A DNA stretch of 64,000 bases from a virus: positions 32,001-96,000 of IMG/VR virus record IMGVR_UViG_3300031463_000001; one strand, 5' to 3'. Shown one piece after another: positions 12,567 through 61,795 of the stretch (its first letter is position 1; each line of letters begins with the position of its first letter). The notes below the pieces were generated by a model. That model saw only the letters and a list, made by a program, of their open reading frames with translations. It ran no database searches and was not told the origin of the DNA. Both the position numbers and the translations under genes were made by a program.

Positions 12567-13088
12567 TTATTGGGGTGTTATTTCTGGATGATCTTTATAG
12601 AACTCATCTAGTTTACCAATTTGTTTAAGAAAATTGGTATAAGAGGTAAGTTGTTTTTTATTTTTAATTATAGTTCCTTCTCCCTTAATAAATCTATCTT
12701 TTAAAACGTTTTGAGCATAAAGGCATGAGTAATAGCTATCAGTAGCTATAGTATTTTCACCTTTAGGAAAAGGACCATGCAAAACATCACTAGCATAACC
12801 ATATGCATATCTTAACCATTTAGCCATTTCATCTTCCCCCTTTGGAAAAGGCCCTTTTAAAATAAATTTAGCATACCAAAAAGAAGTTTGGCCATCTAAA
12901 GTAATTATATCTTCAAACGTATCTTTAATCTTACCTTTAGCAATTTTTTCGGCATATTCATAAGTTAAAAAAGGATCTTTAACCATTGGGATTAATGTTT
13001 CTGCTAGTTCTTTATCTTTCTTTTTAATAGCTTCTTTTAATACTTTTTTAATTTTATCGGGATCTTTTAATAAATCTGATATGTTCAT
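12567..13088 (-). CDS. 26-aa helical repeat family protein (MNIxDLLKDP...KDHP)
   Basis: Family N-cap, GPFPKGE repeats, C-cap DEFYKDHPE; last gene of array 1. Confidence 0.9.
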   Translation of the reverse strand: MNISDLLKDPDKIKKVLKEAIKKKDKELAETLIPMVKDPFLTYEYAEKIAKGKIKDTFEDIITLDGQTSFWYAKFILKGPFPKGEDEMAKWLRYAYGYASDVLHGPFPKGENTIATDSYYSCLYAQNVLKDRFIKGEGTIIKNKKQLTSYTNFLKQIGKLDEFYKDHPEITPQ

Positions 13089-13528
13089 AATTTATCTTTA
13101 ACCTCTGGATGGTCTTTTAGAAATTCGTTTAACTTATTAATTTTTTTAAGAAAATCTATATAATCCCAAAAATAATCAAAATTAATAATAGTATCCTCTC
13201 CCTTAATAAACCTATCTTTTAACACATCTTTAGCATACCAAAAAGAATACCAAGAATTTTTAGCTATAACATCTTCTCCTTTAATAAATCTATCTTTTAA
13301 AACATAACTAGAATAAAAAAAAGAAAATTTTGAATCTTGAGCAATAATATCTTCAAACTCATCTTTAATCTTACCTTTAGCAACTTTTTCCGCATATTCA
13401 CAAGTTAACTCGGGATCGTTAACTATTGGGATTAACATTTCTGCTGCTTCTTTATTTTTATCTTCAATAGCTTTTTCTAATACTTTTTTAGCTTTATTTG
13501 GATCTTTTAATAAATCTGATATGTTCAT
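13085..13528 (-). CDS. 26-aa repeat family protein
   Basis: Family caps; ATGA overlap with neighbours. Confidence 0.9.
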   Translation of the reverse strand: MNISDLLKDPNKAKKVLEKAIEDKNKEAAEMLIPIVNDPELTCEYAEKVAKGKIKDEFEDIIAQDSKFSFFYSSYVLKDRFIKGEDVIAKNSWYSFWYAKDVLKDRFIKGEDTIINFDYFWDYIDFLKKINKLNEFLKDHPEVKDKL

Positions 13529-14133
13529 ACTTTATCTTTTACCTCTGGATGATTGTTTAAGAATTCTTTTAATTTTTTTATTCGTCTAAGAAAATTTATA
13601 TAACTCTTTAAATAAGTTGAATCGGAATTATTTATAATTGTATTTTCACCTTTAATGAATCTATCTCTTAAAACTTCTTTTGCATATCTAACTGAATAAT
13701 TAGAATTGGTAGCAATAGCATCTTCTCCTTTTGGGAATGGACTATGTAATATATATGCGGCATATTCAAATGAATGGTTTGGCTGTTTAGCTATTGCATC
13801 CTCTCCTTTTGGCCACGGTCCTTTTATAACATTAAATGCATATGAGTAAGCACTCCAAGGATCTTTAGAAATAGTATCTTCTCCTTTAGGAAACGGACCC
13901 TTTAAAACCTCATAAGCATACCAATAAGACCATATTCCATCTTGAGCAATTATATCTTCCCACTCATCTTTAATCTTACCTTTAACTATTCTTACAGCAT
14001 AAAGTTCTGTTAAACGGGGTTCTTTAACTATTGGGATTAACATTTCTGCTAATTCTTTGTTTTTGTTATCAATAGCTTCTTTTAATACCTTTTTAATTTT
14101 ATCGGGATCTTTTAATAAATCAGATATGTTCAT
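13525..14133 (-). CDS. 26-aa repeat family protein
   Basis: Family caps, three internal xP(F/W)PKGED repeats. Confidence 0.9.
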   Translation of the reverse strand: MNISDLLKDPDKIKKVLKEAIDNKNKELAEMLIPIVKEPRLTELYAVRIVKGKIKDEWEDIIAQDGIWSYWYAYEVLKGPFPKGEDTISKDPWSAYSYAFNVIKGPWPKGEDAIAKQPNHSFEYAAYILHSPFPKGEDAIATNSNYSVRYAKEVLRDRFIKGENTIINNSDSTYLKSYINFLRRIKKLKEFLNNHPEVKDKV

Positions 14134-14648
14134 AATTTAATTTTGTATATACTATGACCTTTCTCTATAAATTCTGCAGAAAAGTTTTGATGTAATACAT
14201 GAGATCTCCAACGTGTTTCTTTCTTTTCAATTATCCACCATCTACCCCCATCCTTCCTTACAATAAAATCTCCATTCTGTAAAGAGGGTTCAAAGAGAGT
14301 CCACCCACTTAATATAGCTTCATTTTTTATACCTTGTTCAGTAGGTTTAAATCTTTGATTAAATGGTGTAATCATACTAATTTTAATTTCAATGGGACGA
14401 TAAAATCCACCAACATAATTAGTTCCAAAACAATAAAGACAAAATTCAATTTGAGGATGTTGTCCTCTTATCTTATCAAAATTAGGACAAATTTGGCCCT
14501 CTCTCTTTTTTCTATAATATAAAACACGTTCACCTCCCATCTCCAATAACCATTTCTCTCTATTTCGAATTTCCAGGAGGTATCTGACTAAAGGATCAAA
14601 GTTACGATCTGAAACATTGGGAAGAATTTGTAGGTGAGACCAACTCAT
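14130..14648 (-). CDS. Putative neck/head-closure-like structural protein
   Basis: GERVLYY..C...CLYCFGTNYVGGFY.P and GDFIV...RW motifs resemble large-myovirus neck proteins; coupled within the repeat-gene array. Confidence 0.45.
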   Translation of the reverse strand: MSWSHLQILPNVSDRNFDPLVRYLLEIRNREKWLLEMGGERVLYYRKKREGQICPNFDKIRGQHPQIEFCLYCFGTNYVGGFYRPIEIKISMITPFNQRFKPTEQGIKNEAILSGWTLFEPSLQNGDFIVRKDGGRWWIIEKKETRWRSHVLHQNFSAEFIEKGHSIYKIKL

Positions 14649-15169
14649 AGTTTAACCTCCGGATGATCTTTTAAGAATTCATCTAGTTTATTTATAGATT
14701 TAAGGAAATTAATATAATCTTCCAAATATCTTTTTTTAGGAGAATTAATAATAACATCCTCTCCTTTAATAAATCTATCTTTTAAAACATCTTGAGCATA
14801 TCGATTAGAACTCCAAAAATCAGTAGCAATAGCAGGTTCTCCTTTTGGCCAAGGACCTTTTATAATATCTCTAGCATATAAATAAGCATAATTATCATCT
14901 TTAGCAAGTGTATCTTCACCTCTAGGGAATGGACCTTTTAAAACAAATAAAGCATAATCATATGAAACTTTTACACTTTGAGCAATTATGTCTTCAAATT
15001 CATCTTTAACTTTACCCCGAGTTATATAATATGCATATTCATAAGTTAACGCGGGATCTTTAATTATTGGTATTAACATTTCTGCTAATTCTCTTTTTTC
15101 ACTAGTTATAGCCTTCCATAAAACTTTTTTAATTTTATCGGGATCTTTTAATAAATCTCCTATATTCAT
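14645..15169 (-). CDS. 26-aa repeat family protein
   Basis: Family caps and repeats. Confidence 0.9.
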   Translation of the reverse strand: MNIGDLLKDPDKIKKVLWKAITSEKRELAEMLIPIIKDPALTYEYAYYITRGKVKDEFEDIIAQSVKVSYDYALFVLKGPFPRGEDTLAKDDNYAYLYARDIIKGPWPKGEPAIATDFWSSNRYAQDVLKDRFIKGEDVIINSPKKRYLEDYINFLKSINKLDEFLKDHPEVKL

Positions 15170-15612
15170 AATTTATCTTTTACCTCCGGATGATCTTTTA
15201 AAAACTCATCTAGTTTGTATATAGATTCAAGGAAACTAATATAATCCTTTAAATATTCTTTATCTTTAATAATAATATTTTCTCCTAAAAGAAATCTATC
15301 TTTTAAAATATTTTTAGCATAATCAAAAGAATACAATGAATCTTTAGCAATAGTGGGTTCTCCTTTTAGGAATGGTCCATGTAAAACATTTTCAGCATAC
15401 CAACAAGAAACAGGTGCGCTTTGTGCAATAATATCTTCCCACTCGTCTTTAATTGGTTTTCTAACTATTCGTTGAGCATATTTATAGGTTAAATAAGGAT
15501 CTTTAACTATTGGAATTAACATTTCGGCTAATTCTTTGTTTAAATCATCAATAGCATCTCTTAATACTTCTTTAGCTTTATCTGGGTTTTTTAATAAATC
15601 TGATATATTCAT
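15166..15612 (-). CDS. 26-aa repeat family protein
   Basis: Family caps and repeats. Confidence 0.9.
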   Translation of the reverse strand: MNISDLLKNPDKAKEVLRDAIDDLNKELAEMLIPIVKDPYLTYKYAQRIVRKPIKDEWEDIIAQSAPVSCWYAENVLHGPFLKGEPTIAKDSLYSFDYAKNILKDRFLLGENIIIKDKEYLKDYISFLESIYKLDEFLKDHPEVKDKL

Positions 15613-16223
15613 AATTTAACTTCTGGATGATCTTTTAAGAATTCATCTAGTTTATTTATTGTTTTTAAGAAATCGATATATTTTATCAAATAATTTTTTT
15701 CACCTTCTTGATCTCCACTATCTATAATTACATTTTCTCCTTTAACAAATCTACCCTTTGATACATCTCTAGCATAATGATAAGAATAATAAGGATCTTT
15801 AGCAATAACATCCTCTCCTTTAATAAAAGGTTTTTGTAAAACATTTGCAGCATAAAGATAAGAGAAAGTGGGATCTTTAGCTATAACATCCTCACCTTTA
15901 GGAAATGGACCTTTTAAGACCTCATAAGCATAATAATAAGAACTATAGGCGTTAGTAGCAATAGCATCTTCTCCTTTTGGGAATGGGGCATGTAAAACAA
16001 AGCTAGCATATCGATAAGAATAAAGGGGATCTTTAGTAATAATATCTTCCCATTCATCTTTAATTTTATTTTCAGCTATTTCAAGGGCATATCTAAAAGT
16101 TAACCCAGGATCTTTAACTATTGGAATTAACATTTTAGCTAATTTTCTTTCCCCAGTATTTATAGCTTTTCTTAATGCTTTTTCAGCTTTACTTGGATCT
16201 TTTAATAAATCTAAAAGATTCAT
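15609..16223 (-). CDS. 26-aa repeat family protein
   Basis: Family caps and repeats; first gene of array 1. Confidence 0.9.
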   Translation of the reverse strand: MNLLDLLKDPSKAEKALRKAINTGERKLAKMLIPIVKDPGLTFRYALEIAENKIKDEWEDIITKDPLYSYRYASFVLHAPFPKGEDAIATNAYSSYYYAYEVLKGPFPKGEDVIAKDPTFSYLYAANVLQKPFIKGEDVIAKDPYYSYHYARDVSKGRFVKGENVIIDSGDQEGEKNYLIKYIDFLKTINKLDEFLKDHPEVKL

Positions 16224-19048
16224 TTAACTTCCTCAAAACTTATAGGTCTTTCTATTTTACCTGACTTACTATTTAAACTAAAAGGACATCTTATACTTCC
16301 ACCTTGATGATATGTGCTAACATCTAATCTTAAATAATCTTCACTAGGAACAATTCCTGTAGTGGTTTTATCATATTTAGATACAATTTCATTATCCAAC
16401 AAATCTCTTAACTTTTTTCTAGTGGTAGTTATATTTTGAGGATTTTTAAAAAATATAAATAGATGATAACCTCTTCCACCAGTTTCAAATAGTTCAGTTT
16501 TAGATACTTCAAAGTTTTTCTTTATTAAATTATCTACATCTTTTATTATTTTTTTTAAATCTTTTCTATCATATTCAGAATGTACATCAAAATCTATCCA
16601 AGCTAGATTAGAGACTTTATCAGATAAAACTAAATGAAATTCCACTATTCTACCCGTATTTAATCTATCAAAATCCTCTTCAGTTTCAATTTTAAGAGGT
16701 TGATGTGTTTTGGAATCATTTTTCATAATTATAACATTTTCATTTGGTTTTAACCACAACATTGTATTAAAACCTTTTAAATATTTAAGAAGTTTAGATT
16801 TATTTGTGTTGTAGTAATTCCATATATCTTGTTCAGTCCATTTAGGTTTTTCAATAATTATAGTATCAGGATGAACGGGTTGGTAGGATTTTTTGAATAA
16901 AGAAATTTTTAGATGTGTGTTAACAACTAGATTGGGATTATTTTCATCTCCCCACTGATGTATAAAATCATTAACATACTCATATCTTCCTTCTTTAGAA
17001 TAATAATTTAAAATTTGATTTTTTGAATCATTATCATCTATTTTCCAATCTGTGATAGTTTCTCCCGCTTCCATATAATCACCCTCTTTTATTAATCTTT
17101 TTACTATTAATTTTTTTAAATCATCATCTAAATATTGTGGATATTTATTTTCGATTAATCTTATTAAATTACTAACATATATAGAAGGATTAGAAACAAA
17201 AGAAATAATTTCTTCTTTAGAAAAAGTAGGAGCTAATTCAGGCCATTTTTCAATATATCTTACCCAATCTTCGATATCATTTATTTCTTTAAATTTATTT
17301 AACACAAATTGTTTTAATTCCAAATTTTTTACTTTAAAAGTATTAATTAAATCAGCTAATTTTTCCCAATTTTCTTCTTTTATAAATCTTTCAATTTCTT
17401 CTTTAACTAATGTTTCTTCTGAAATATTATCTAATTTTGATTTATACTTAATATAAAGAGTATATGATTTTTTTCTAAGTTGTTCTAAACCCTTTTCTTT
17501 TAGTTCAGGGGTTAAAAAATCGAATCCCCAATTTTTTTCGATTTCTTCAATCCACCAATCTAAACTGTTTCTATTTATTAACATCTCAACTATTTTTCTT
17601 TTTAAGTCATCAGAAATTGATGGAAATCTTTTAATTATCTCTCCAAGATACCCTTGTTGTAACAATTTTTCTACAGTTGGTTTTTCAATCTTTATATTAA
17701 GAGTTTCTAAAATTTGGGGATGATCTTCAAAAAGATCTATATTTTCTTCTACATATTTTTTTAAATTATTTTTAGACTCTTCAGTTAATTTATCTTTATA
17801 TTTTAAAATTTCTTTTATAAAAGCAGATTGTAAATCGGAATTTCTTTCCATTTTATCTAATGATTTAATTGCTGAATTAAGATATTCATAATATTGATCT
17901 TTTGTACTTTGTTTAGCTACTGTTTTCCAATATTCAAATGCTGAAATTGGATTAGATTTAATTTCATCTATAATTTGTTCTTTTAATTTAGGATCTAAAT
18001 TAGTTTTTTCAAAGGTACTTTTATTTATTATATACCCAATTAAATTTAAAAAACTTCCTTTATTTAAAGGTGTTCCGCCTCCTCTAATTACTACAAAATC
18101 ATTAGGAAGACTTAAAACATAATCTATTAAAACTTGTTCGTTTAATTTATCTTTTATTAAATCCAGATAATTAAAAAATAAATCCCATTCTATAGGTGTT
18201 AATACTTTATCTTTTATTTCAATATGATTATATATTTTGTTTAATTTTTCAATTAAATCTTCTTTACTCATTTCTTTTTGTTCTTTAATAGGATACTTAA
18301 AAATAGGTTGCCATTCTTTTAATACCCCATAATCTTTGTCTAAGATAAAGATCGTACTATCAGATAATGATTTATTTAATGTACTATTTACTCCATCTTC
18401 TCCTCCAATAGCAAAAAGAGGAACTCCATTTTTAAAAATAAACCAAAATCCAATTTCTTTAGTTTTTGGATTTTCCCAATATTGCTGAGCATAATTTAAA
18501 TTATTAATACACCACATATTGTATCCCTTATTAGCTAATTCGATTATTCCTTCAGAAGATAATGCTTTATAGAGAACATATTGATCTCCTTCTATGTTTT
18601 TAGTATCTACTACTTCATAATTTATTTTTTCTTTTTCGGATGAGAAATTTAAAATTTCATCAATATCTTTTCTCTTTAAAAGTGAAGGATATTTGGTAAA
18701 CTTTTCTTTTAATTCATCTAATTTATCACTAATCTTATCATAATTAGTAAACAATAATTTAAACATATTTACTATATCAAAATCTTTAAGAGGAGAAATA
18801 GGTTGAGTTTCTATTTCTTTTACATTAATATCCAACCATTCTTCTCCTTTACGCTTATGGATATATTTTTCTTTTATAGTATCTAAATCTTTCTCTACCC
18901 TCAAATATGGAGAAAGAACATACACAATATCTAAAAATTTTTGGGTATAAGAGGGATTACCTAAAAACTCTTTTACATTAAATAATTCTTTTAACTTTCC
19001 AGCAATTTTAAAAATAGGTAACCAATCTTTTATGTCAAATTTATGCAT
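16220..19048 (-). CDS. Large multidomain protein with C-terminal LigD-polymerase-like (AEP primase-polymerase) domain
   Basis: C-terminal WIDFD (DxD), ETGGRGYH (motif II), RLD...RCPFSL resemble the LigD PolDom; N-terminal WC-containing domain also seen in the 60605 ORF; helical middle. Confidence 0.7.
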   Translation of the reverse strand: MHKFDIKDWLPIFKIAGKLKELFNVKEFLGNPSYTQKFLDIVYVLSPYLRVEKDLDTIKEKYIHKRKGEEWLDINVKEIETQPISPLKDFDIVNMFKLLFTNYDKISDKLDELKEKFTKYPSLLKRKDIDEILNFSSEKEKINYEVVDTKNIEGDQYVLYKALSSEGIIELANKGYNMWCINNLNYAQQYWENPKTKEIGFWFIFKNGVPLFAIGGEDGVNSTLNKSLSDSTIFILDKDYGVLKEWQPIFKYPIKEQKEMSKEDLIEKLNKIYNHIEIKDKVLTPIEWDLFFNYLDLIKDKLNEQVLIDYVLSLPNDFVVIRGGGTPLNKGSFLNLIGYIINKSTFEKTNLDPKLKEQIIDEIKSNPISAFEYWKTVAKQSTKDQYYEYLNSAIKSLDKMERNSDLQSAFIKEILKYKDKLTEESKNNLKKYVEENIDLFEDHPQILETLNIKIEKPTVEKLLQQGYLGEIIKRFPSISDDLKRKIVEMLINRNSLDWWIEEIEKNWGFDFLTPELKEKGLEQLRKKSYTLYIKYKSKLDNISEETLVKEEIERFIKEENWEKLADLINTFKVKNLELKQFVLNKFKEINDIEDWVRYIEKWPELAPTFSKEEIISFVSNPSIYVSNLIRLIENKYPQYLDDDLKKLIVKRLIKEGDYMEAGETITDWKIDDNDSKNQILNYYSKEGRYEYVNDFIHQWGDENNPNLVVNTHLKISLFKKSYQPVHPDTIIIEKPKWTEQDIWNYYNTNKSKLLKYLKGFNTMLWLKPNENVIIMKNDSKTHQPLKIETEEDFDRLNTGRIVEFHLVLSDKVSNLAWIDFDVHSEYDRKDLKKIIKDVDNLIKKNFEVSKTELFETGGRGYHLFIFFKNPQNITTTRKKLRDLLDNEIVSKYDKTTTGIVPSEDYLRLDVSTYHQGGSIRCPFSLNSKSGKIERPISFEEVK

Positions 19049-19057
19049 GAATTTTTC

Positions 19058-19528
19058 TTATTTTAAAATTTGATCAACTTTTGAAGCTTCCTCTTCTCCT
19101 TTCTTTTTCTTAGTATAATCAACAATTTCTTTCTTTTCTTCTTCATTTAAATTCCATCTCTTTATCAAATCTTTAAACACTGATACAAAATTCACATCAA
19201 TCATTTTCTTTATAATGGAGATTATATAAAATCTATCTTTAATATCACTTATATGTGGGTTATCTTCAAGTTGTCTAATTTTTTCTAAATCCATATTTTT
19301 AAGTGCCTTTATGAACATCATATATTTTGAATCATCTGTTAGAGTTTTTTCCCACGCTTCAGTTAAGGTTTCCTCTAATTCTTTTTCAGTTTTTTGGGTT
19401 CTTTCAAGTACTTCTTCTCCATATGCTTCAACATCTTCCCATTTATAACTCTTTAATATTAAAGGATTTTTTAATATTTCTCCAATATTTATCTTACCTT
19501 CTTTTATCAACTTTATAAGTTTTTTCAT
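19058..19528 (-). CDS. Hypothetical protein sharing its first 61 aa with the 53120 ORF
   Basis: MKKLIKLIKEGKINIGEILKNP...EAWEK near-identical to the 53120 ORF. Confidence 0.8.
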   Translation of the reverse strand: MKKLIKLIKEGKINIGEILKNPLILKSYKWEDVEAYGEEVLERTQKTEKELEETLTEAWEKTLTDDSKYMMFIKALKNMDLEKIRQLEDNPHISDIKDRFYIISIIKKMIDVNFVSVFKDLIKRWNLNEEEKKEIVDYTKKKKGEEEASKVDQILK

Positions 19529-19538: not shown

Positions 19539-20117
19539 TTAAATTAATTTTTTCAAATTTTCTTTAAGCATATCTACATATTCGTTATACAAAGAATCAA
19601 GATCCGATTCTAATTCCTTTTTCATTATTTCTTGCTTTACTTCGTTTTTATTAAACATTTTTAAAGCATATTTTAGGTCTTCCAATATACTCCTTAATTC
19701 ATTAATTTTTTTCTCAATAGGAACTTTTTCCTCTAGCAAGCTATCCCAATATTCATTTAAATTTATCAAATCTTTTACTACTTCTTCATTACTTAAGTTA
19801 AACTTTAATTCAAACTTTGTATAATCAATAAAATCATCTGATTTAACTATTTCAAAATTTTTCCTTATTAATTTATCAACTTTGTCCCAATAATCTGGCA
19901 TAATCTCAATATCCCACCTATCGAAAAACCTTTCTAATTTTTTTTCTCCTATCTTTTCAATTGTTTCATTATCAATATCTATAGTTGGTTTATAAACATC
20001 AATTTCAAAAATTTCATCATCTTTACTACTCCAACTTTCATCAACTTCTTTAATTTTGTCTTTTACTTTAACTATATCAGCTAATTCAGGATATTTTAAT
20101 AAATCAGATATATTCAT
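19539..20117 (-). CDS. Acidic coiled-coil protein with MNISDLLKYP tag
   Basis: Tag plus non-repeat body; related to the 20117 and 22278 ORFs. Confidence 0.8.
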   Translation of the reverse strand: MNISDLLKYPELADIVKVKDKIKEVDESWSSKDDEIFEIDVYKPTIDIDNETIEKIGEKKLERFFDRWDIEIMPDYWDKVDKLIRKNFEIVKSDDFIDYTKFELKFNLSNEEVVKDLINLNEYWDSLLEEKVPIEKKINELRSILEDLKYALKMFNKNEVKQEIMKKELESDLDSLYNEYVDMLKENLKKLI

Positions 20118-20689
20118 TAGGTTAACTCCTTAATTATTTTATCCCACATTTTTCTATATTTTACATATAGAGGAGGTAATTGGGGTCTAAGTAATTCTTG
20201 ACTATTCTCCCTTATTTGTTTATTTATTTCAAAATTATTTAAATCATGTTTAGCATTAACATTCCATCCCGAATATGTATCTTTTAAATCTTCTATTGGT
20301 CGATCACTCTTTAAAAGAAATTCAATTTCTTTTATTTCATTTTTAAAATTTTTCATAATTTCTTTATTACTTATACTAATAGGCTTAGCTTTAAGGATAA
20401 GTTTATCCTCACTTGGTCTAAATTCATAAATATCAAGATCATATGCTTCGACTACTTCGCTTACTTCATCCAAGTATTTTTTACGAGTCTCATTATATAA
20501 TTTGTGTAATTGTTCCCATTTTTCTTCATTATCAAATAATTCATGTTCAAGTTTTTGAGGAATTACTAAATCATCTATTGTAAAAACAGATATTTCTGAT
20601 TCGGGATTATTTAGGATATCTTTAATTTTATTGTAGGTAACTAACACATCACCTAAAAAAGGATATTTTAATAAATCAGATATTTTCAT
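20117..20689 (-). CDS. Hypothetical protein with MKISDLLKYP tag
   Basis: Tag plus non-repeat body. Confidence 0.8.
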   Translation of the reverse strand: MKISDLLKYPFLGDVLVTYNKIKDILNNPESEISVFTIDDLVIPQKLEHELFDNEEKWEQLHKLYNETRKKYLDEVSEVVEAYDLDIYEFRPSEDKLILKAKPISISNKEIMKNFKNEIKEIEFLLKSDRPIEDLKDTYSGWNVNAKHDLNNFEINKQIRENSQELLRPQLPPLYVKYRKMWDKIIKELT

Positions 20690-22281
20690 GGTTCTAACAC
20701 ATCCAGAAATTTATTTATCAAATCTATTTGAGAAGGAGTAAAAATCCATCTTTTTCCATTTTGTTTTTCAAACCACGATCTTGCAGTATTACCTAATACA
20801 TCTGCAGTAGCTTTCCAATCAGCCACCATTTCCAAAATATATTCATTTGGCATTCTAGAGGCATCTACTTTTTGGGTTGCATTATCTGGATCTTCACCTA
20901 CTATTTCTACTTTATCACACCAATATTCTGGATGATGTTTACTATTTTTAATGTGATGGAATAAAACTTGTTTTTCATTTTCTTTTAAAGGTTCTTTAAT
21001 CTTGTTGAACTTTTTGTAGGTTAAATCAATATAAGGAGTTCTTTCAGGTTCTTTCATTTTCAATTCATCATGTTTTTCTACATTTTTTAATGCGTCTGAA
21101 TATTGAGGAAACGCTTTAACTAATTTTTTAACATTATTTTTTACTCTATTAACATGGTTAGCTATATGGGCTTGATATTCTTTTTCTTTATCATTCCAAA
21201 AAGGATCTTTTAATAAAGCTTTAATTTCTATTTTATTATTTTTAACTAAATTCAAAAGGTTAGCTTCTTTTGATATTTCATTCCAATTAGGTATTTGTTC
21301 TAATCTTAAATCAGTAGGATCAATTCTTTTATCTGGTCTAATCCTAACAAAAGTAGGTATCCTTAAAGCTATTCCTGTATCTTCTCCTAAATATTCTAAT
21401 GTTTTTTCATCATAAACAGGTACATCTTTTACAAAATAACTTATTGCTTCAACCTCTATTACATATTTAGGTTTAACAAATATTCTATCTTTTTCTTGAT
21501 ATAATTTATCTTGTTGAGATATTTTTAACCATTCTTCTTTTTCTTTTTGATCTAACCCACCCACATTTCCTGCATATCTAAACTTATTTTCTTTATCCAT
21601 AAACGCTAAACCCAAAGAACCTACCATTTCTGGATGCTCCTTACTTTTCTCTATAAATATTACACCTAAATCAAATGTTAAAGTTGGTTTACATTTATAA
21701 ATATTCTTATCTGTATAAATAACAGCTCCTTCGTATTTTTTAGTTATAACTAAATTCCAATCATTAGTGTAATCTTTCATTTCAATAATGGGATGAACTA
21801 ATTTTCCACTTTCAAAAATTTTTCTAACTTTTATTATTCCATCTTCAACTTTTTCATCATCTAAATGTAATACATCTAAAACATAAAATCTAATTTTGGT
21901 TTCATCATTTGGAGAAGGTTTATTAACAAGGTGGAGTGTTTTATTAAAAGGAAGCATATATCCTTGATTGTCAGAAGCATATAATTCACCTACAATTAAA
22001 GCAAATGTTATGGGGTGGGATTCTAAAATTTGACGGATCTCTTTAAGTACAGGTAAATCTTTTCTAATTATTCCATTTTGGGTAATGAAATAGGGATCGT
22101 CTCCATATTTATAAACCAAAAGATTTAAAATTCCGTCTATCTTAAAAGTTATATATTTAACATTTTCTTTTTTTATTATCTTATCAATATCCTCGAAATT
22201 AATGGTTTTCATACTTTTCTCTTCTTTCCATTTTTGTAATATTGGTAAAAATTTATTTTGTTTGTCTATTTTTTTAATCAT
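20686..22281 (-). CDS. ATP-dependent DNA ligase fused to C-terminal HD-like (DUF5662-like) domain
   Basis: Ligase motifs FKIDG (KxDG), VGELY, FYVLD, EGAVI, YKCKP, LRIPTFVRIRPDK; C-terminal H...KHD...HH....HHPEYW...EMVADW. Confidence 0.85.
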   Translation of the reverse strand: MIKKIDKQNKFLPILQKWKEEKSMKTINFEDIDKIIKKENVKYITFKIDGILNLLVYKYGDDPYFITQNGIIRKDLPVLKEIRQILESHPITFALIVGELYASDNQGYMLPFNKTLHLVNKPSPNDETKIRFYVLDVLHLDDEKVEDGIIKVRKIFESGKLVHPIIEMKDYTNDWNLVITKKYEGAVIYTDKNIYKCKPTLTFDLGVIFIEKSKEHPEMVGSLGLAFMDKENKFRYAGNVGGLDQKEKEEWLKISQQDKLYQEKDRIFVKPKYVIEVEAISYFVKDVPVYDEKTLEYLGEDTGIALRIPTFVRIRPDKRIDPTDLRLEQIPNWNEISKEANLLNLVKNNKIEIKALLKDPFWNDKEKEYQAHIANHVNRVKNNVKKLVKAFPQYSDALKNVEKHDELKMKEPERTPYIDLTYKKFNKIKEPLKENEKQVLFHHIKNSKHHPEYWCDKVEIVGEDPDNATQKVDASRMPNEYILEMVADWKATADVLGNTARSWFEKQNGKRWIFTPSQIDLINKFLDVLEP

Positions 22282-22844
22282 TTTCCTTTATTTTTGATTA
22301 TGTCCTTTAATGTTTCTTTTAACATTTCTTCATAATCAGATTTAATTTTTTTAATTTCTTTTTCTATTTCTTTAATAGCATCCTCATTTTCTTTTTCAGT
22401 TTCTTCCAAAATTTTCAAGGATTCCTCTAAACTTTTCCCATATTCAACTATAGCTGAAATATTTTCTTCTATATTTTTTTCTTTAAACAAAATGTTTAAC
22501 TCAAACAAATCATCATGCATACTTTCTAAAATACTTCGTAAACTTTGTTTTGGAATTAACTTAAAAGAGGAAACACTCCACTGATCTTTTAAATCAAAAT
22601 TTTTCTCTATGATTTTAGTAGCATTCTTATAAAAATTAGTCATTAAATATTCATATTGATCATAAAGAGGTTTCAAATCTTCGTCTGAAAGAAAATCAGG
22701 AATTTTTATTTTAGGTTCTTCTATATCAAGTTCATAATTATCTATTTCTTCTAATTCATAAAGTTGAGTAACTTTTTTTGCATTATTATAAACTTTAATG
22801 ACATCCACTAATTGAGGATATTTTAATAAATCTGAAATGTCCAT
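22278..22844 (-). CDS. Acidic coiled-coil protein with MDISDLLKYP tag
   Basis: Paralog of the 19539 ORF. Confidence 0.8.
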   Translation of the reverse strand: MDISDLLKYPQLVDVIKVYNNAKKVTQLYELEEIDNYELDIEEPKIKIPDFLSDEDLKPLYDQYEYLMTNFYKNATKIIEKNFDLKDQWSVSSFKLIPKQSLRSILESMHDDLFELNILFKEKNIEENISAIVEYGKSLEESLKILEETEKENEDAIKEIEKEIKKIKSDYEEMLKETLKDIIKNKGK

Positions 22845-23246: not shown

Positions 23247-23651
23247 TTAATCTTTTATCTTTTTCAATAAAGCTTCAATCACTTTTTTAATTTCGTAAGC
23301 GGGATAACTCTTTAAAAACCATTCCAACTTTTCTCTTTTAGCTAAAAATTCAATATATTCAGTTATAATATCTTCATCTCCACTTTCTAATATAGCTTTT
23401 TCTCCTTTAATAAATCTATTTCTTAGTGTCCATTGAGCATATTCTAATGACATTTTAGCATCGGTGGCAATAATATCTTCTACTTCAGGAACAGGGTATT
23501 TACTTCTATAATAAACGTATTCAGAAATTATATCCTTATTTCGGGTATATTTTAGTAGTTCAGAGGCGGTATATTCATCATCTTCATCAAGAGCCCTCTT
23601 AATTCTACCTTCTAATCCACCTGGTTCTTTTAATAAATCAGAAACATCCAT
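23247..23651 (-). CDS. Divergent 26-aa repeat family protein
   Basis: MDVSDLLKEP start (ATG 23651), EDIIATD..YA..LRNRFIKGE, KLEWFLKSYP. Confidence 0.8.
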   Translation of the reverse strand: MDVSDLLKEPGGLEGRIKRALDEDDEYTASELLKYTRNKDIISEYVYYRSKYPVPEVEDIIATDAKMSLEYAQWTLRNRFIKGEKAILESGDEDIITEYIEFLAKREKLEWFLKSYPAYEIKKVIEALLKKIKD

Positions 23652-23689
23652 ATAAGTATCCCTATAAATAAATCGATTTTGATAATCAA

Positions 23690-28023: not shown

Positions 28024-28033
28024 ATTTCACCCC

Positions 28034-28069: not shown

Positions 28070-28080
28070 CCTATTTATTT

Positions 28081-29667: not shown

Positions 29668-29688
29668 AAAAAAATCAAAAAAGACAAA

Positions 29689-52013: not shown

Positions 52014-52102
52014 AAGCTTCCTCCAATAATGATATTACACATATGGTTTAGTTTTTTTTGCCCTTTCGAATTATCGTTTATGATTTAAATAGAAGAATTA
52101 GT

Positions 52103-52711
52103 ATGAAAAAAGAAAGTAAAATAAATATTGTTGATTTATTAAAAGATCCAAATAAAGCTAAAGAAGTATTAACAATGGCTATAGATAATGGAAATAAAGA
52201 ATTAGCCGAATTGTTAATTCCTATAGCCAAAGATCCCTATTTAACGTATAGTTATGCCTACTTAATAAATAAACCAGTTAAAGATGAGTTTGAAGATATT
52301 ATTGCTAAAAATTCTTTTTATTCTTATCAATATGCATTAGATATTTTACAGGGACCTTTCCTAAAAGGAGAAGATGCTATCTCTAAAAGTTCAGAATATT
52401 CTTATAGATATGCCTTAAATATTTTACATAAACCATTTCCTAAGGGTGAGGATGCCATTACTAAAAATTCTTTTTATTCTTATCATTATGCTGCAGATGT
52501 TTTACATAAACCATTTCCTAAAGGAGAAAATACTATTGCTGGAGATTCTTTTTATTCTTATAATTATGCTAAAGATATATTAAAAGATAGATTTATTAAA
52601 GGAGAAAAAACAATAATAAATTCAGAATGGTTAAATGATTATATTAGGTTTCTTAAAGAGATAAATAAACTAGATGAATTCTTAAATGATCATCCAGAGG
52701 TTAAATTATGA
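52103..52711 (+). CDS. 26-aa repeat family protein
   Basis: MKKESKINIVDLLKDP (ATG 52103)...DEFLNDHPEVKL. Confidence 0.9.
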   Translation: MKKESKINIVDLLKDPNKAKEVLTMAIDNGNKELAELLIPIAKDPYLTYSYAYLINKPVKDEFEDIIAKNSFYSYQYALDILQGPFLKGEDAISKSSEYSYRYALNILHKPFPKGEDAITKNSFYSYHYAADVLHKPFPKGENTIAGDSFYSYNYAKDILKDRFIKGEKTIINSEWLNDYIRFLKEINKLDEFLNDHPEVKL

Positions 52712-53064
52712 ATATATCAAAGTTGTTAAAAGATCCAAAAAAATTTGATGATTTTTTGTATCATGAAATTCAACATAACGATTTTTCAACATCTAGAATA
52801 CTTATTCCTTATACAAAAAATCCAGCAATTATTCACGCTTTTCTAAAAAAATTTAAAGTTAAAATTCCTTCATTAGAAAATTTAATTACTCAAAATCCAC
52901 ATTTGGCATTAAGTTATATTGATAATGTTATTAAAGATCGCTGGCTTCCTGGAGAAGAAGCCATTCTTAAAAATGAAGAAGATTTGGAATATTATAAAGA
53001 CTTCCTTAAATCTATTGGTAAACTAGACGAATTCTTAAAAGATCATCCAGAGGTTAAGAATTGA
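52708..53064 (+). CDS. 26-aa repeat family protein, minimal divergent form
   Basis: MNISKLLKDP...DEFLKDHPEVKN. Confidence 0.85.
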   Translation: MNISKLLKDPKKFDDFLYHEIQHNDFSTSRILIPYTKNPAIIHAFLKKFKVKIPSLENLITQNPHLALSYIDNVIKDRWLPGEEAILKNEEDLEYYKDFLKSIGKLDEFLKDHPEVKN

Positions 53065-53119
53065 ATTCTAAAATTGAAGGTATTTCATTTTTTGAGAAAA
53101 TTAATTTGAAGAGGAATAA

Positions 53120-53932
53120 ATGAAAAAACTTATAAAATTAATAAAAGAAGGTAAGATAAATATTGGAGAAATATTAAAAAATCCTTTAATATTAAAGAGT
53201 TACAAATGGGAAGATGTTGAAGCATATGGAAAAGAAGTACTTGAAAGAACCCAAAAAACTGAAAAAGAATTAGAAGAAACCTTAACTGAAGCGTGGGAAA
53301 AATATGGTAATGAATATTTTTTAATTCCAATTGAGGAGTTGGGTTTAAATGAGTCTGTAATTAGATTACTTAAAAGTGAAGGAATTAAGAATGTAAGTGA
53401 ATTAGCTTCTCTTACTGAGGATGATTTAAGAAATGTAGTGTATCTATCTGAAAAAACTATAGATCTTATAAAAGAAAAATTGAAAGAAATGGGATTAGAA
53501 CTAGGAGAAGGAAAAGAGTTTGATGTTGAAAAAATGAATCCCTATAGAATAAATATCAAATTTGAGGAGTTATTGCATAATAAAGATGAAGAAAGGGCTA
53601 CAAAACTTTTACCTTACATAGATAAACCAGACTTATTAGTTAATTATGCAATTAATTTTAATACTAAACTACCCCCAGAACAAGAACAAATAGTTGCTAA
53701 AAATCCTTATGCTTCATTAGCTTATGCACTTAAAGTATTAAAAGATAGATTTATTCTGGGAGAACCTTCAATAGTAAAAATGTATGATGAGATGAGAAGA
53801 AAGATGCCCCAAAAAGGAGAAGAAAACCTAATGGCTACTATACAGGCTCTTATTCATGAATATTTTATAATGCTAAATTCAGTAGGTAAGCTGGAAGATT
53901 TTATGAAAGATTATCGGAATCTTTTTCATTAA
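53120..53932 (+). CDS. Chimeric protein: duplicated N-module + RNA polymerase alpha-CTD-like domain + repeat-family domain
   Basis: IPIEELGLNESVIRLLKSEGIKNVSELASLTEDDL...IKEKLKEMGLEL matches the alpha-CTD pattern; C-half YALKVLKDRFILGE...GKLEDFMKDY. Confidence 0.8.
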   Translation: MKKLIKLIKEGKINIGEILKNPLILKSYKWEDVEAYGKEVLERTQKTEKELEETLTEAWEKYGNEYFLIPIEELGLNESVIRLLKSEGIKNVSELASLTEDDLRNVVYLSEKTIDLIKEKLKEMGLELGEGKEFDVEKMNPYRINIKFEELLHNKDEERATKLLPYIDKPDLLVNYAINFNTKLPPEQEQIVAKNPYASLAYALKVLKDRFILGEPSIVKMYDEMRRKMPQKGEENLMATIQALIHEYFIMLNSVGKLEDFMKDYRNLFH

Positions 53933-58345: not shown

Positions 58346-58374
58346 GTTTGTCGAGATTGATTTCTTTAAAGAAG

Positions 58375-59017
58375 ATGAATATAGCTGATTTATTAAAAAA
58401 TCCAGAAAAACTAAATGATGTTTTTAGAGATGTATTAGATAAGGGAGATAAAGAATCAGCTAGGATATTACTTCCATATGTAAGTCCTTTTTTTTTATTA
58501 TAAGTATTTAGAACAGCTTGGAGAAAGGGTTCCCCTTGAATTCGAATCTAAATTATTTGGTTTGTCAGATTTTTCAAAAGGAGGATATGAGTATGTAAAT
58601 GTTATTTCAGGGAAGGATTTATATGATTCTTTTCTTAAAGATTGGGGAGATAAATATGCAAATAAAATAGTTAATGCATTAGCTAATTCTTATGATTATG
58701 GGCCTCTAATAGAGGGTGCAGTTAAAACAACTAAAGAATATTCAGATCGAGTTTTTTTACCTCTTTTGAATTATGATTTTGATAGGACTAGTGATTCTTG
58801 GGGAACATTATTAACAATTCTTTTAACTAATTATAATTACAGATTACCTCCGGAGATATTATCTAAATTGGGTAAAGATGATTTAAAAGCATTAAAGAAA
58901 TATTTAGGAGTTTATGAGAAATTAGTAGAGGAAAGAGAGGGGGATAGATATGCGGAAGATTCATATGACTTAATTAATGAATCTTATAAGTATTTGAAAA
59001 ATAATTTAAGAAAGTAA
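58375..59017 (+). pseudogene. Tagged gene split by a T9 homopolymer frameshift
   Basis: MNIADLLKNP...YVSPFFLL* (58375-58503); removing one T from 58488-58496 joins it in frame to ORF 58562-59017. Confidence 0.75.
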
Positions 59018-59021
59018 AAGA

Positions 59022-59069
59022 GTGAACATAGGTGAATTCTTAAAAGATCATTCAGAGGTAGAATTATGA
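59022..59069 (+). other. Empty repeat-gene cassette (mini-ORF MNIGEFLKDHSEVEL)
   Basis: GTG AAC ATA GGT GAA TTC TTA AAA GAT CAT TCA GAG GTA GAA TTA TGA: family first codons fused in frame to family last codons, with ATGA overlap to 59066. Confidence 0.75.
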
Positions 59070-59626
59070 ACATAGAAGATTTATTAAAACATCCAGAAAA
59101 AGCAAGAACGTTTTTGGACAAGGCTATTTTTGGTGGAAACAAAAAATTAGCTGAAATTTTAATTCCAATAGTTAAACATCCTTATTCAACTTATTTATAT
59201 GCAAAAGAAATAGTTAAGGGAAAAATAAAAGATGAATGGGAATATATTATTGCTCAAGATCCTTATGCTTCTCTTGATTATGCCTTTAACATTCTAAAAG
59301 GTCCATTTCCAAAAGGAGAAGATGCAATTGCTAGAGATTCATATACTTCTTATAATTATGCTGTTATTTTAGAAAGACCGTGGCCAAAGGGAGAGGATGT
59401 TATTGCTAGAGATCCAAGATTTGCTTATTATTATGCTAGATATGTGTTGAAGGATAGATTTCCAAAAGGAGAAAAAGAAATTATTAGTAGTGAGATTACT
59501 GATCCGGGTAATGATTTTGGTGAAAATGGTGAATCAGGTTTTTCTTCTTATGTTAAGTTTTTGAAATCAATAAATAAATTAGACGAATTCTTAAAAGATC
59601 ATCCGGAGGTAAAAGATAGAGTATGA
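59066..59626 (+). CDS. 26-aa repeat family protein
   Basis: Family caps; insertion in C-cap loop. Confidence 0.9.
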   Translation: MNIEDLLKHPEKARTFLDKAIFGGNKKLAEILIPIVKHPYSTYLYAKEIVKGKIKDEWEYIIAQDPYASLDYAFNILKGPFPKGEDAIARDSYTSYNYAVILERPWPKGEDVIARDPRFAYYYARYVLKDRFPKGEKEIISSEITDPGNDFGENGESGFSSYVKFLKSINKLDEFLKDHPEVKDRV

Positions 59627-60087
59627 ATATAGAAGATTTATTAAAACATCCAGAAAAAGCACAAATGGCTTTGCGAGAAGCTATTTGGAATAATGATGCA
59701 AAATTAGCAGAAGCTTTAATACCAATAGCAAGAGATCCACATTTAACTCTTAATTATGCTCAAAATATAGTTAAGGGAAAAGTTAAAATTGAGTTTGAAG
59801 ATATTATAGCCCGAGATGGAGAAGCTTCTTTTTATTATGCTTATGAAGTCTTAAATGGTCCCTTTCCTAGAGGAGAATATGCAATTGCTGAAAATGAAGA
59901 TCTTTCATTAGATTATGCGATTAAAGTATTAAAGGATAGATTTCCAAAAGGAGAAGAAGCAATTATATATGTAGCTTTAAAGCATGATGATGATGTATAT
60001 TTATGGAGATATACGGATTTTCTTAAAGAGATTGGTAAACTAGACGAATTCTTAAAAGATCATCCTGAGGTAAAAGATATAGAATGA
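59623..60087 (+). CDS. 26-aa repeat family protein
   Basis: Family caps and repeats. Confidence 0.9.
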   Translation: MNIEDLLKHPEKAQMALREAIWNNDAKLAEALIPIARDPHLTLNYAQNIVKGKVKIEFEDIIARDGEASFYYAYEVLNGPFPRGEYAIAENEDLSLDYAIKVLKDRFPKGEEAIIYVALKHDDDVYLWRYTDFLKEIGKLDEFLKDHPEVKDIE

Positions 60088-60608
60088 ACATAGGTGATTT
60101 ACTAAAAGAAGGAGCGGATAGTGTTTTCGATAAAGCAATAAAAGAAAAAAATAAAGAGTTAGCAGATTTTCTAATTAAGTTTATAAAAGATCCTTTTCTT
60201 CTTTTCGATTATGCAGCTAAATTTAATGAAAAATTAAAACCTGAATTTGAAGATATTATTGCTAAAAATTGGGATACATCCTTTTATTATGCACTTCATT
60301 TTAAAAATCCTTTTCCTAAAGGTGAAGATATAATGGCAAAAGATTTGTATACTGCCTATCATTATGCAGCTGATGTTTTACAAGGACCATTTCCAAAAGG
60401 TGAACCTATAATTTCTCAATTTCCATATTCATCATATTATTATGCTAAAAGGATATTGCATGATAGATTTCCAAAAGGAGAAAAAGCAATTATTGATAGC
60501 AAAGATCAAGAAAATGATGAAGATTATTTTAGACTCTATATTAAATTTTTAAAATCCATTAATAAACTAGATGAATTCTTAAAAGATCATCCAGAAGTTA
60601 AATTATGA
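60084..60608 (+). CDS. 26-aa repeat family protein
   Basis: Family caps and repeats. Confidence 0.9.
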   Translation: MNIGDLLKEGADSVFDKAIKEKNKELADFLIKFIKDPFLLFDYAAKFNEKLKPEFEDIIAKNWDTSFYYALHFKNPFPKGEDIMAKDLYTAYHYAADVLQGPFPKGEPIISQFPYSSYYYAKRILHDRFPKGEKAIIDSKDQENDEDYFRLYIKFLKSINKLDEFLKDHPEVKL

Positions 60609-61795
60609 ATATAGAAGATTTGTTAAGGGATCCAAATAGGGTTAAAGAATTATTAGATGAAGTTATTAATAATGGAAACAAAAAATTAGCTAAAGTTTTA
60701 CTTCCATTAGTTGAAAAAGAGTCAACTAGATATGGTTACATAGAGTCATTATTGAAGGGTAGAGAAATTGTAGCTGATTTCGAATCACGATTACCTGTTT
60801 TGATTAAACAGTATAAGGCTCACAATCCAGAATTATCTGAAAGTGAAGCCGAAGCTAAGATTCGTGAATTGAATCAATATGATCCAACGGGTTTAAAAGC
60901 TACATATACACCCTGGATTGTAAAACAGTATTTGGAAGATTCATCATTCGATTTGGATTTAGCTAAACAAGTTTTGAAGGATCTTGAAAAGGTTGTTTTA
61001 CATAAGAAACTACCTGCAGGATTCGATATTGGAAAGTTTAACTTAAATGAATTGAAATCGAAACTTCAACCAATACTTGAGCCAATTGAAGAGTCGGAAA
61101 AGGAGAAGGAAGAGATTAAAAAAGAAGGTCCAATAGGTCAATCATTAATCTCTGAAGAGGGTTATGAAATTATTGAAGTTACTGATCCAAAAGATAGTGT
61201 AAGATTCTGTAAAAAATATCATATTAGGTCTTGGTGTGTAAAGGATTTGGAGTATGCAGAGTTTTACGTTCCTCTCTACTTCGTTTTAAAGAATGGTTCG
61301 CCAAAAGGTGCATGGTCAGAATATGATAAAAAGCTCAGTAATCGACAAGATTTAGATGAGTGGGATCTTGATGAAAGAGATTTTATAGCAAAACTATTAA
61401 GAAAAGTTAGACCTAATTTAACAATAAAGACAAAAGAAGAAATGAAAAGGGAAGCTTTGAATTCTCCGGAGAAAGCTTATAATTATGCATTTAAGGTTAA
61501 AGGAAGATTTCCAGAAGGAGAACCTATAATAGCAAAAAGTCCTAAATATGCTTATTATTATGCAAGAGATGTTATTAAAGAAAGATTTCCTAAAGGGGAG
61601 CCTGCTATAGCAAAAGATTTTTATTTTGCGTGTCTGTATGCAAAATTTGTTATTAAAGGAAGATTTTTAGAAGGAGAAGCTGTAATAATAAATTCAAATT
61701 ATTTTGATGATTATGTTGAGTTTCTTAAAGAAATAAATAAACTAGATGAGTTCCTAAAAGATCACCCAGAAGTTAAAAATTACAAGTCTTTTTAA
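60605..61795 (+). CDS. Repeat family protein with a large inserted domain
   Basis: N-cap, then an unrelated ~240-aa insert (DPTG.K.TY..WI...Y; SWCV...Y.PLYFV.KNG), then repeats and C-cap. Confidence 0.85.
   Translation: MNIEDLLRDPNRVKELLDEVINNGNKKLAKVLLPLVEKESTRYGYIESLLKGREIVADFESRLPVLIKQYKAHNPELSESEAEAKIRELNQYDPTGLKATYTPWIVKQYLEDSSFDLDLAKQVLKDLEKVVLHKKLPAGFDIGKFNLNELKSKLQPILEPIEESEKEKEEIKKEGPIGQSLISEEGYEIIEVTDPKDSVRFCKKYHIRSWCVKDLEYAEFYVPLYFVLKNGSPKGAWSEYDKKLSNRQDLDEWDLDERDFIAKLLRKVRPNLTIKTKEEMKREALNSPEKAYNYAFKVKGRFPEGEPIIAKSPKYAYYYARDVIKERFPKGEPAIAKDFYFACLYAKFVIKGRFLEGEAVIINSNYFDDYVEFLKEINKLDEFLKDHPEVKNYKSF

Follow-up and report, generated by a model that had tools for sequence, protein, structure and literature searches.

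Within a 64,000-nucleotide (nt) stretch of viral DNA, hereafter the window (bases 32001-96000 of the linear 124,898-bp IMG/VR virus record IMGVR_UViG_3300031463_000001, CheckV completeness 76%), we found about 30 paralogous genes encoding small proteins in which constant ends enclose a variable number of 26-residue repeats. These genes appear to represent a lineage-specific expansion, to about 32 genes, of a virus-borne alpha-solenoid repeat family. The anatomy of the proteins is solid and the family is large and unstudied; their function is an inference, and we give about an even chance that they constitute a set of small protein binders that are co-expressed inside the infected cell, with one specificity per paralog and with the conserved ends as a common handle.

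To count the members, a family profile was built from five of them and applied to the open reading frames (ORFs) of at least 35 amino acids (aa) in the window. By using hmmsearch, 32 ORFs matched this profile with E values from 2e-105 to 3e-7. They represent 30 loci, because two pairs of ORFs are the halves of frame-shifted genes, and two of the 30 loci (43750-44355 and 44521-45135) are weak members with the caps only. In the whole record 36 ORFs matched, the four additional ones forming an array outside the window, and the family ORFs together occupy 19,053 nt, or 15.3% of the record. An earlier reading of the bare sequence (the original prediction) had proposed about 30 paralogs, mostly in four arrays at 12567-16223, 34747-39921, 52103-53932 and 58375-61795. 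The profile agrees with both the number and the positions, with the qualification that the ORF 14130-14648 within the first array is a non-member.

The same reading had called the genes phage-encoded, which holds in the sense of a tailed virus. The record carries a Baseplate_J protein, a glycine-rich protein of the tail-fibre type, DnaB-like and other helicases and an HNH endonuclease. Judged from the Baseplate_J and helicase genes, it belongs to a tailed virus, uncultured and of hot-spring origin, hot springs being the habitat given in the run records. Its guanine-plus-cytosine (GC) content ranges from 24 to 37%, and no tRNA was detected by a tRNA scan. Some relatives lie in metagenome-assembled genomes (MAGs) with the labels Aenigmatarchaeota, Nanopusillaceae, Nitrososphaerota, Pacearchaeota or Omnitrophota, perhaps as mis-binned viral contigs.

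Architecture and predicted fold of the repeat proteins

The alignments showed that the N-terminal part of the proteins consists of a short helix (M-N-I-x-D-L-L-K-D-P...) followed by two degenerate repeats, ..LIPIVKDPxLTYxYAxxIVKG and then KIKDEWEDIIAQDxxxSYxYAxxVLK. The canonical 26-residue repeat, G-P-F-P-K-G-E-D-A-I-A-K-D-x-x-Y-S-Y-x-Y-A-x-x-V-L-K, is present in zero to four copies per protein, and the C-cap has a repeat-like beginning (DRFIKGE..II) and ends with ..FLKxIxKLDEFLKDHPEVKL. Because zero to four canonical repeats lie between constant ends, the proteins fall into length classes of 118, 145-148, 171-174, 198-204 and 223 aa. The N-cap and C-cap consensus sequences and the steps of about 26 aa are thus as they had been described from the sequence. 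Most of the genes within the arrays overlap by ATGA, and a GAGGT Shine-Dalgarno-like motif lies in the C-cap codons of the preceding gene, 8-10 nt before the next start; this suggests that the array genes are translationally coupled and co-expressed. A scan of 28000-46000 for promoter-like sites (72 versus 97.6 expected) and terminator-like sites (11 versus 7.4) was uninformative.

The structure of a 172-aa member (37669-38187) was predicted with AlphaFold2 from an alignment of 29 sequences, with a mean predicted local distance difference test (pLDDT) score of 96.0 and a predicted template modelling (pTM) score of 0.86. The model is an elongated all-helical solenoid of 13 helices, alternating between about 7 residues (helix A, positions 4-10 of the repeat) and about 12 residues (helix B, positions 14-25). 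Its secondary structure shows the stacked antiparallel two-helix repeats of the HEAT/ARM/TPR-like class, so that the fold is confidently predicted to be an alpha-solenoid. The best structural neighbours of the model were all helical-repeat proteins. Foldseek returned no PDB or BFVD entry at E <= 0.001, and in an exhaustive alignment against 48,161 chains the best match was a designed helical-repeat protein with Z 6.7, followed by HEAT, TPR and PPR proteins, and no chain reached Z 8. Helical repeats as a class give scores of this size as background, so that none of the HEAT, TPR, Sel1 and PPR families stood out as a specific match. When PDB sequences were searched with a profile, nothing scored below E 0.15. 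Prediction of a homodimer (score 0.00, mark 0.42) gave no evidence either way.

Per-position entropy was calculated in the register G1-P2-F3-P4-K5-G6-E7...Y20-A21 from 67 units, including a few C-cap starts. E7 and Y20 show no variation; F/W3, G6, I10, A21 and V/I24 are near-invariant, whereas the entropy exceeds 2.5 bits at positions 14, 15, 16, 19, 22 and 23. A near-invariant framework with hypervariable specific positions, as originally proposed, is therefore present. At 100 degrees per residue, positions 15, 16, 19, 22, 23 and 26 (the last of moderate entropy) fall within an arc of about 120 degrees, with the conserved positions 17, 20, 21, 24 and 25 opposite. From the secondary structure and this helical periodicity, the variable residues would line one side of helix B in every repeat. 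The helix A and loop positions 5, 8, 12 and 13, which are presumably exposed, are far less variable than positions 15, 19, 22 and 23 of helix B. The same fixed and the same variable positions were observed in 1,073 units from 145 representatives of the superfamily described below. An N-cap, a C-cap, repeats of equal length and variable residues on one helix face, the last deduced from periodicity, were thus all found, and the cap, repeat and variable-surface architecture that had been likened to that of known binders is real in this sense.

The variable positions had also been described as rich in Tyr, Ser, Phe, Trp and His, which holds for Tyr. Tyr makes up 11.9% of the residues at positions 14, 15, 19, 22 and 23 in 54 clean units, compared with 4.3% in the other ORFs of the genome, a 2.8-fold excess. 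In the 67 units, at the six variable positions including 16, the low frequencies of Trp and His are about doubled, and those of Ser and Phe stay near background. The isoelectric points (pI) of the family ORFs range from 4.6 to 10.0 (4.6-9.3 for full-length members) and are mostly acidic, being below 7 in 25 of the 36 ORFs; protein partners therefore fit better than nucleic acid.

The first ten residues are near-invariant yet are the least confident part of the model, with a mean pLDDT of 73 for residues 1-10 against 95-99 elsewhere, and a motif [DE]-[LF]-L-K-D-(H)-P is present at both termini. The N-terminal tag also opens, as M-x-I-S-D-L-L-K-Y-P, three acidic proteins without repeats (19539-20117, 20117-20689 and 22278-22844, minus strand; 188-192 aa, pI 4.6-5.2). 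Two of the three pairs among these are 28-31% identical over their full length, and the third aligns over the first 25 residues only. Those at 19539-20117 and 22278-22844 are 92-97% conserved in the related locus L030, and no Pfam family was found for the two acidic tagged proteins scanned. Looser variants of the tag are found close to the start of 19058-19528, 53120-53932 and 48132-49094 and within the protein of 20686-22281, so that the leader is common to the repeat family and the three-member acidic family, with looser forms on four more proteins. In addition, the cap sequences frame unrelated middles at 60605-61795, 43750-44355 and 44521-45135 and in the fusion at 58375-59017, which is intact in the related loci L001 and L035. 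Since the tag is found on repeat-free proteins and the caps around unrelated middles, these sequences suggest that the ends do more than cap the solenoid, perhaps docking to a common partner or serving as a sorting signal.

Divergence of the paralogs and comparison between strains

The best paralog identities at the protein level are 30-74%, and only four nucleotide matches of at least 88% over at least 60 nt were found among all family genes. The nearest unit of a repeat lay in the same gene in 5 of 83 cases, compared with 2.6 expected, which rules out recent duplication of repeats within genes; the median nucleotide identity to the nearest unit was 76%. Near-identical junctions were seen in four neighbouring genes of array 2 only, and one clear exchange of a segment was detected, the last units of 38537-39052 and 15609-16223 being 94% identical in nucleotide sequence. 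Because near-identical tracts are few and the junctions vary synonymously, gene conversion was ruled out as the cause of cap conservation, which we attribute to selection on the protein. Judging from these identities, the paralogs are old and have not been homogenised. Signs of decay were also seen: two genes with frameshifts, one fragment of an N-cap and a scar of 15 codons at 59022-59069.

To learn how the set varies between strains, related loci were compared, leaving out the relatives of 126,279 bp and 109,392 bp. L030 is syntenic with array 1; five genes are shared at 77-95% identity, L030 has one extra gene, and one gene of the window is absent from it. L029 is syntenic with array 2, and two anchor genes encoding 118 and 390 aa are 94-95% identical. 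The L029 genes between these anchors differ in number and length, and their best matches to any gene of this virus are only 49-79%, whereas unrelated flanking genes are 92-98% identical between strains. The original prediction would have been weakened by a fixed repertoire across relatives. The comparison indicates that the repertoire is not fixed, nor is it freely shuffled: some genes have been retained at 89-95% identity, and their neighbours are gained, lost or replaced. Comparison of the contigs of four sequencing runs with 30000-47000 showed related strains in three further hot-spring metagenome studies. The longer contigs from those runs cover the flanks 30316-35504 and 40357-47000; array 2 is fragmented in them and short paralogous pieces pile up there, so nothing was drawn from cover or gaps within array 2.

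Seven ortholog pairs with 89-95% identity were used to examine the variable positions, giving 158 variable codons, which is a small sample. The variable residues are identical at 144 of the 158 codons (about 91%), and the nonsynonymous rate (dN, 0.044) is lower than the synonymous rate (dS, 0.078); the variable residues therefore appear to be maintained and not free to drift. The record contained no match to RVT_1 (reverse transcriptase), and the family genes contained no set of near-identical template repeats. A diversifying library like that of the variable lymphocyte receptors (VLRs), to which the original prediction had compared the set, or one of the DGR type is thus not borne out, given the conservation of the variable residues, a dN/dS ratio (omega) below 1 and the lack of reverse transcriptase or templates. 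The sequences instead point to a diversity that is standing and maintained, with a repertoire that changes by gain, loss and replacement of whole genes and no sign of ongoing hypermutation.

Candidate functions of the repertoire

In the reading we favour, each protein would be a small soluble rod with a nearly frozen frame, formed by helix A together with the packing side of helix B, and the free side of helix B would differ from gene to gene at five or six residues per repeat, which are rich in Tyr. The paralogs would act as co-expressed intracellular protein-binding modules, one specificity each, for host take-over or counter-defence, and the strongly conserved ends may dock all members to one partner or act as a sorting signal. 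Their diversity would have arisen by old duplication, divergence and change in repeat number, not by a mutagenic mechanism, with whole genes in flux between strains. Of the originally proposed binder set, the anatomy of caps, repeats and variable face and the confidently predicted solenoid stand; binding, and binding to host defence proteins, is purely inferred. The variable face would be the protein-binding side, with host proteins as the targets.

The closest parallel in design is provided by the alphaRep binders, which are based on natural HEAT-like repeats and in which positions 18, 19, 22, 23 and 26 of the second helix are randomised and lie at the interface in crystal structures (PMC3754942). 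These binders and the natural thermophile HEAT-like repeats share with the phage proteins an N-cap, a variable number of two-helix repeats of equal length, a C-cap, variable residues at i, i+3/4 and i+7 of the second helix and a thermal habitat; they differ in a repeat of 31 rather than 26 aa and show no detectable sequence relation. The best structural Z to HEAT or designed repeats, 6.0-6.7, is background for helical repeats, and the phage set, unlike alphaRep, is natural and virus-encoded. Bacillus phage G offers a parallel in numbers: in a jumbo-phage review its roughly 35 copies of a zinc ribbon are called unprecedented (PMC7824862). Both cases show tens of paralogs of one small domain for which specific binding is the guessed function, but here the domain is an alpha-solenoid, the genome is about 125 kb or somewhat more, and the coding share is far higher.

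Several results weigh against this reading. The single exposed face is deduced from secondary structure and helical periodicity rather than from measured accessibility, and part of the Tyr excess lies at the semi-conserved positions 16 (48% Tyr) and 18 (65%), where it may be structural. Between orthologs, 14 of 158 variable codons differ, compared with 89 of 1263 framework codons (Fisher p = 0.41). For the variable positions, omega was estimated at 0.57 (bootstrap 95% interval 0.25-1.59), which is compatible with neutrality and lends no support to positive selection; for the framework it is 0.25 (0.19-0.33). The kept orthologs evolve much like their neighbours, the framework value being close to the 0.23 of four unrelated genes (pooled from four of six, acid19539 and GATQueC being omitted because of indel mis-alignment). 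For dN/dS, by which the original prediction proposed to judge the variable positions, the outcome is divided: the residues appear maintained, and an excess of change is absent, with an interval that spans 1. Finally, host defence proteins as the targets are a guess.

The conserved ends leave room for two other readings. One is that the proteins are packaged and injected 'internal' proteins and that the N-terminal decapeptide is a capsid-targeting or sorting tag, an idea compatible with binding that we consider unlikely. In phage T4 the internal proteins IPI, IPII, IPIII and Alt have a common capsid-targeting leader of about 10 residues, and their loci are polymorphic between related phages. 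The present set is similar in having a leader of about that length on otherwise different proteins and polymorphic loci; that the decapeptide is the most conserved segment and the least confidently modelled, that it opens the three acidic proteins and, more loosely, four others, and that the N-cap is fused to unrelated bodies (58375-59017 and 60605-61795) all fit such a role. However, the acidic tagged proteins are paralogous, so the tag occurs in few independent families; the leader continues, in the model, into a folded N-cap, unlike in T4; and the arrays lie among replication genes, outside the head module. No prohead protease of the T4 or HK97 type (PF03420, PF04586) was found in the 76%-complete record, which is a weak argument as the PF03420 control matched nothing anywhere. 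The other reading, of comparably low probability, is a repertoire of adaptors, in which the terminal motif would dock all members on one machine (such as a protease, the capsid or a hub of replication or transcription) and the helix-B faces would recruit different host proteins. In the ankyrin-repeat families of poxviruses and giant viruses, numerous paralogs combine variable repeats with a constant docking motif at the C-terminus, and the working idea is that they are substrate adaptors for one host machine. The phage set likewise joins variable repeats to a constant terminal module in many paralogs, but its repeat and terminal motif differ and its hosts are prokaryotic; it would be a prokaryotic-virus counterpart of these ankyrin/F-box-type families, and whole-gene exchange between strains would tune the target list.

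It is also conceivable, though improbable in our judgement, that there is no diversified specificity at all: the variable positions would be a weakly constrained surface, function would reside in the frame and caps (as a scaffold, chaperone-like or self-assembling protein), and the copies would reflect dosage or neutral duplication. An omega interval that includes 1, the lack of excess change over the framework and the strong conservation of precisely the caps and helix A are what this would produce, and three broken loci, together with one more reduced to a scar, indicate that single copies are dispensable. Against it, the low variability of positions 5, 8, 12 and 13 shows that exposure alone is insufficient, the same positions vary across 145 distant relatives, 91% of the variable residues are conserved between orthologs, the paralogs have long been kept at a median of 76% nucleotide identity to the nearest unit, and devoting 15% of a genome to dosage alone would be costly. 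Far less probable is that the proteins are modular readers of nucleic acid in which, as in TALE, PUF and PPR proteins, each repeat would recognise a base through its variable residues. In favour, each repeat has a single variable cluster, located on one helix, positions 16, 19 and 22 often carry aromatic or basic residues, and one member is fused to a helix-hairpin-helix domain like the C-terminal domain (CTD) of the RNA-polymerase alpha subunit; but most members are acidic or neutral (pI below 7 in 25 of 36 ORFs), Asp and Glu are frequent at the variable positions, and each protein has just 2-6 repeat-like units. The structural matches to PUF and PPR proteins are within background (PPR10 at Z 5.5 among many TPR and HEAT rows), and the matches to Ner/SfsB helix-turn-helix (HTH) models are short and local.

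If the set is indeed one of protein binders, tailed viruses of prokaryotes carry natural sets of small (118-223 aa) thermostable repeat binders that follow the same design rules as engineered scaffolds. The investment is very large, amounting to about 15% of the genome here, with thousands of relatives in other phages. Such proteins would offer host take-over or counter-defence factors of a new class for screening and a natural scaffold for binder engineering, and virus-host conflicts would be readable from the genes kept and those replaced between strains.

The wider superfamily and the individual loci

A profile search retrieved 5,535 representatives of 50%-identity clusters at E <= 0.001, mostly viral and without a Pfam name, 3,511 of them at E <= 1e-10; some reach 2,253 aa with 22 matched stretches. 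The neighbours in the ESM Atlas are 'hypothetical protein' clusters, 100% viral. In IMG/VR, 28 loci with relatives were found, with GC contents of 28% to 48%, differing N-terminal leaders and 1-7 genes per locus, and five large phage records had 4, 13, 4, 24 and 10 match places, so that multi-copy sets occur in other large phage contigs as well. Like the present proteins, this superfamily, part of which is phrog_28193 (unknown function, matching over 69 residues), keeps E7, I10, Y20 and A21 fixed and varies positions 15, 16, 19, 22 and 23; its other lineages differ in having leaders of the MNLYKYH.. type and in lacking this C-cap. The capped form, with this N-cap and C-cap, was found in 74 proteins among 5.8 billion clusters, in seven or eight metagenome loci, and in two short MAG contigs among 185,579 species genomes, and on these matches appears confined to a small clade of low-GC contigs. 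The repeat is thus part of a virus-borne superfamily of very large size, and what is special here is limited to the extent of the expansion and to the clade-specific caps. With about 32 genes in 125 kb, the present set is the largest measured directly in this analysis.

No Pfam, NCBIfam or PADLOC family covers the proteins (seven proteins were submitted to PADLOC), and no Pfam repeat family matched at E <= 0.1. A search with tblastn of 50,697 GenBank phage records gave no match at 1e-5 for a member and none at 1e-3 for a relative from L005; at E <= 1, the matches were limited to a 45-residue piece in Salicola phage SCTP-2 and a single weak one. The low-complexity filter of these searches may hide repeats. 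Pfam searches found no partner domain in ten long superfamily proteins, with short sub-threshold matches to HTH_35, DUF982, IBN_N, Complex1_51K and Phage_FRD3, nor in eight fusion or repeat proteins of related loci, with a borderline match to Amidoligase_2 (21.8 bits against a cut-off of 22). In the family libraries and the literature searched, subscription journals and supplements being outside the scope, no named family and no paper describes the repeat family, in agreement with the initial impression that no phage system like this had been described. Expansion of repeat families in viruses is already known; this repeat type, its caps and its expansion to 15% of a genome are undescribed in those sources.

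Several names suggested by databases were rejected. For Pfam HTH_35 (PF13693) and NCBIfam SfsB-Ner (NF007670), only 17 of 75 profile positions (33-49) match, once per unit; PF13693 reaches 39.6 bits by summation in one protein with no match in others, NF007670 reaches 28.1 bits against a cut-off of 150, and the Ner chain 1neq gave E = 2. A compact helix-turn-helix of this kind is also excluded by the elongated 13-helix solenoid of the model (pLDDT 96). The public label 'lambda repressor-like predicted transcriptional regulator' stems from a 15-22-residue local match of PWPKGE..IA to the Ner/SfsB models; resting here on 17 residues, this misleading annotation should be corrected. Other public names of relatives, from one source, are 'YafQ toxin' and 'membrane protein'. 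Phage_FRD3 (PF05798; threshold 28.1 bits) has no match in the record at E <= 1 and a best single-protein score of 15.1 bits, with weak 24-bit matches in distant superfamily members, and neither DUF4116 (PF13475) nor PcfJ (PF14284) matched the record at E <= 1.

Array 1 (12567-16223, minus strand) contains six family genes with E values from 3e-99 to 2e-64: 15609-16223 (204 aa), 15166-15612 (148), 14645-15169 (174), 13525-14133 (202), 13085-13528 (147) and 12567-13088 (173). Most neighbours are coupled by ATGA stop/start overlaps. The non-member nested among them, 14130-14648 (minus strand), encodes a basic (pI 9.5), Cys-rich protein of 172 aa of no known family; L030 has this protein at the corresponding position, 96.5% conserved, and it may be a constant companion of the array. 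Next to the array, 16220-19048 (minus strand) encodes a protein of 942 aa whose C-terminal domain resembles archaeo-eukaryotic primases (AEP-TOTE; 26.4 bits, the cut-off being 27). L030 matches this protein over the last 226 residues only (4175-4852, 97% identity), and the large N-terminal part is missing or replaced there.

Farther along the minus strand lie a divergent single member of 151 aa (23247-23702; E 2e-21), which has a C-cap and in which an N-cap-like sequence starts at residue 17, and two divergent members at 29422-30355, namely 29900-30355 (151 aa; E 1.4e-21) and 29422-29667 (81 aa, N-terminal half only; E 4.3e-14), with relatives in L033 at 56-60% identity. Array 2 (34747-39921, minus strand) has nine loci: 39484-39921 (145 aa), 39049-39487 (frameshift-split), 38537-39052 (171 aa), 38184-38540 (118 aa, no internal repeat), 37669-38187 (the modelled protein), 37081-37672 (frameshift-split), 36641-37084 (147 aa), 35916-36587 (223 aa, four internal repeats) and 34747-35919 (390 aa, two tandem modules). 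The split pairs are 37081-37539 with 37529-37672 and 39049-39303 with 39251-39487; their overlaps at 37529-37540 and 39251-39303 may equally be genuine decay or assembly errors. Directly adjoining array 2, and conserved in L029 and L033, is a 475-aa fusion of a glutamine amidotransferase with a QueC-like protein (33262-34689, minus strand; PHROG E 1.5e-68 and 1.3e-47), which hints at DNA modification of the 7-deazaguanine type.

The remaining members on the minus strand are a single one of 192 aa (40685-41263; E 2.9e-50), a divergent one of 241 aa with four RFEKGE-type repeats (42958-43683; E 9e-56) and the two weak ones, 43750-44355 (201 aa; E 2.9e-7; pI 4.8) and 44521-45135 (204 aa; E 4.8e-8; pI 4.6), whose ends are cap-like and whose differing middle is acidic. 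Array 3 (52058-53932, plus strand) comprises 52058-52711 (217 aa from a TTG start, an ATG at 52103 being the likelier start), 52708-53064 (118 aa) and 53120-53932 (270 aa). The last has the RNA-polymerase alpha-CTD-like helix-hairpin-helix domain (Pfam RNA_pol_A_CTD, E 4.9e-9, residues 64-123) followed by the C-terminal module of the family. It has a 60-residue N-terminus in common with 19058-19528 on the minus strand.

At 58348-59017 (plus strand), an N-cap fragment (58375-58503) is followed by an unrelated body out of frame (58562-59017). From its sequence this looks like a frame-shifted copy of the N-cap fusion, which is intact as proteins of 331 aa in L001 (6556-7551) and 326 aa in L035 (2023-3003). 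The scar at 59022-59069 (plus strand) has a GTG start, joins the initial 4 codons of a family gene to its final 11 and retains the ATGA coupling to the next gene; it would fit a deletion between the codons for DLLKD in the N-cap and those for the similar EFLKD in the C-cap. Array 4 (59066-61795, plus strand; E 4e-72 to 2.7e-52) follows with 59066-59626 (186 aa), 59623-60087 (154), 60084-60608 (174), which is 96% identical to a gene in L035, and 60605-61795 (396). The last consists of an N-cap, an unrelated middle of about 230 aa, two repeats and a C-cap; a suspected resemblance of this middle to the N-domain of the L017 and L022 proteins was dropped, as BLASTP aligns the repeats only. Outside the arrays, the ORF 48132-49094 (plus strand; 320 aa) encodes a different helical repeat (..K-D/E-V/I-P-x-E-x-I..), and its likely true start, M-E-I-E-R-I-L-R-D-P, resembles the N-terminal tag of the family.

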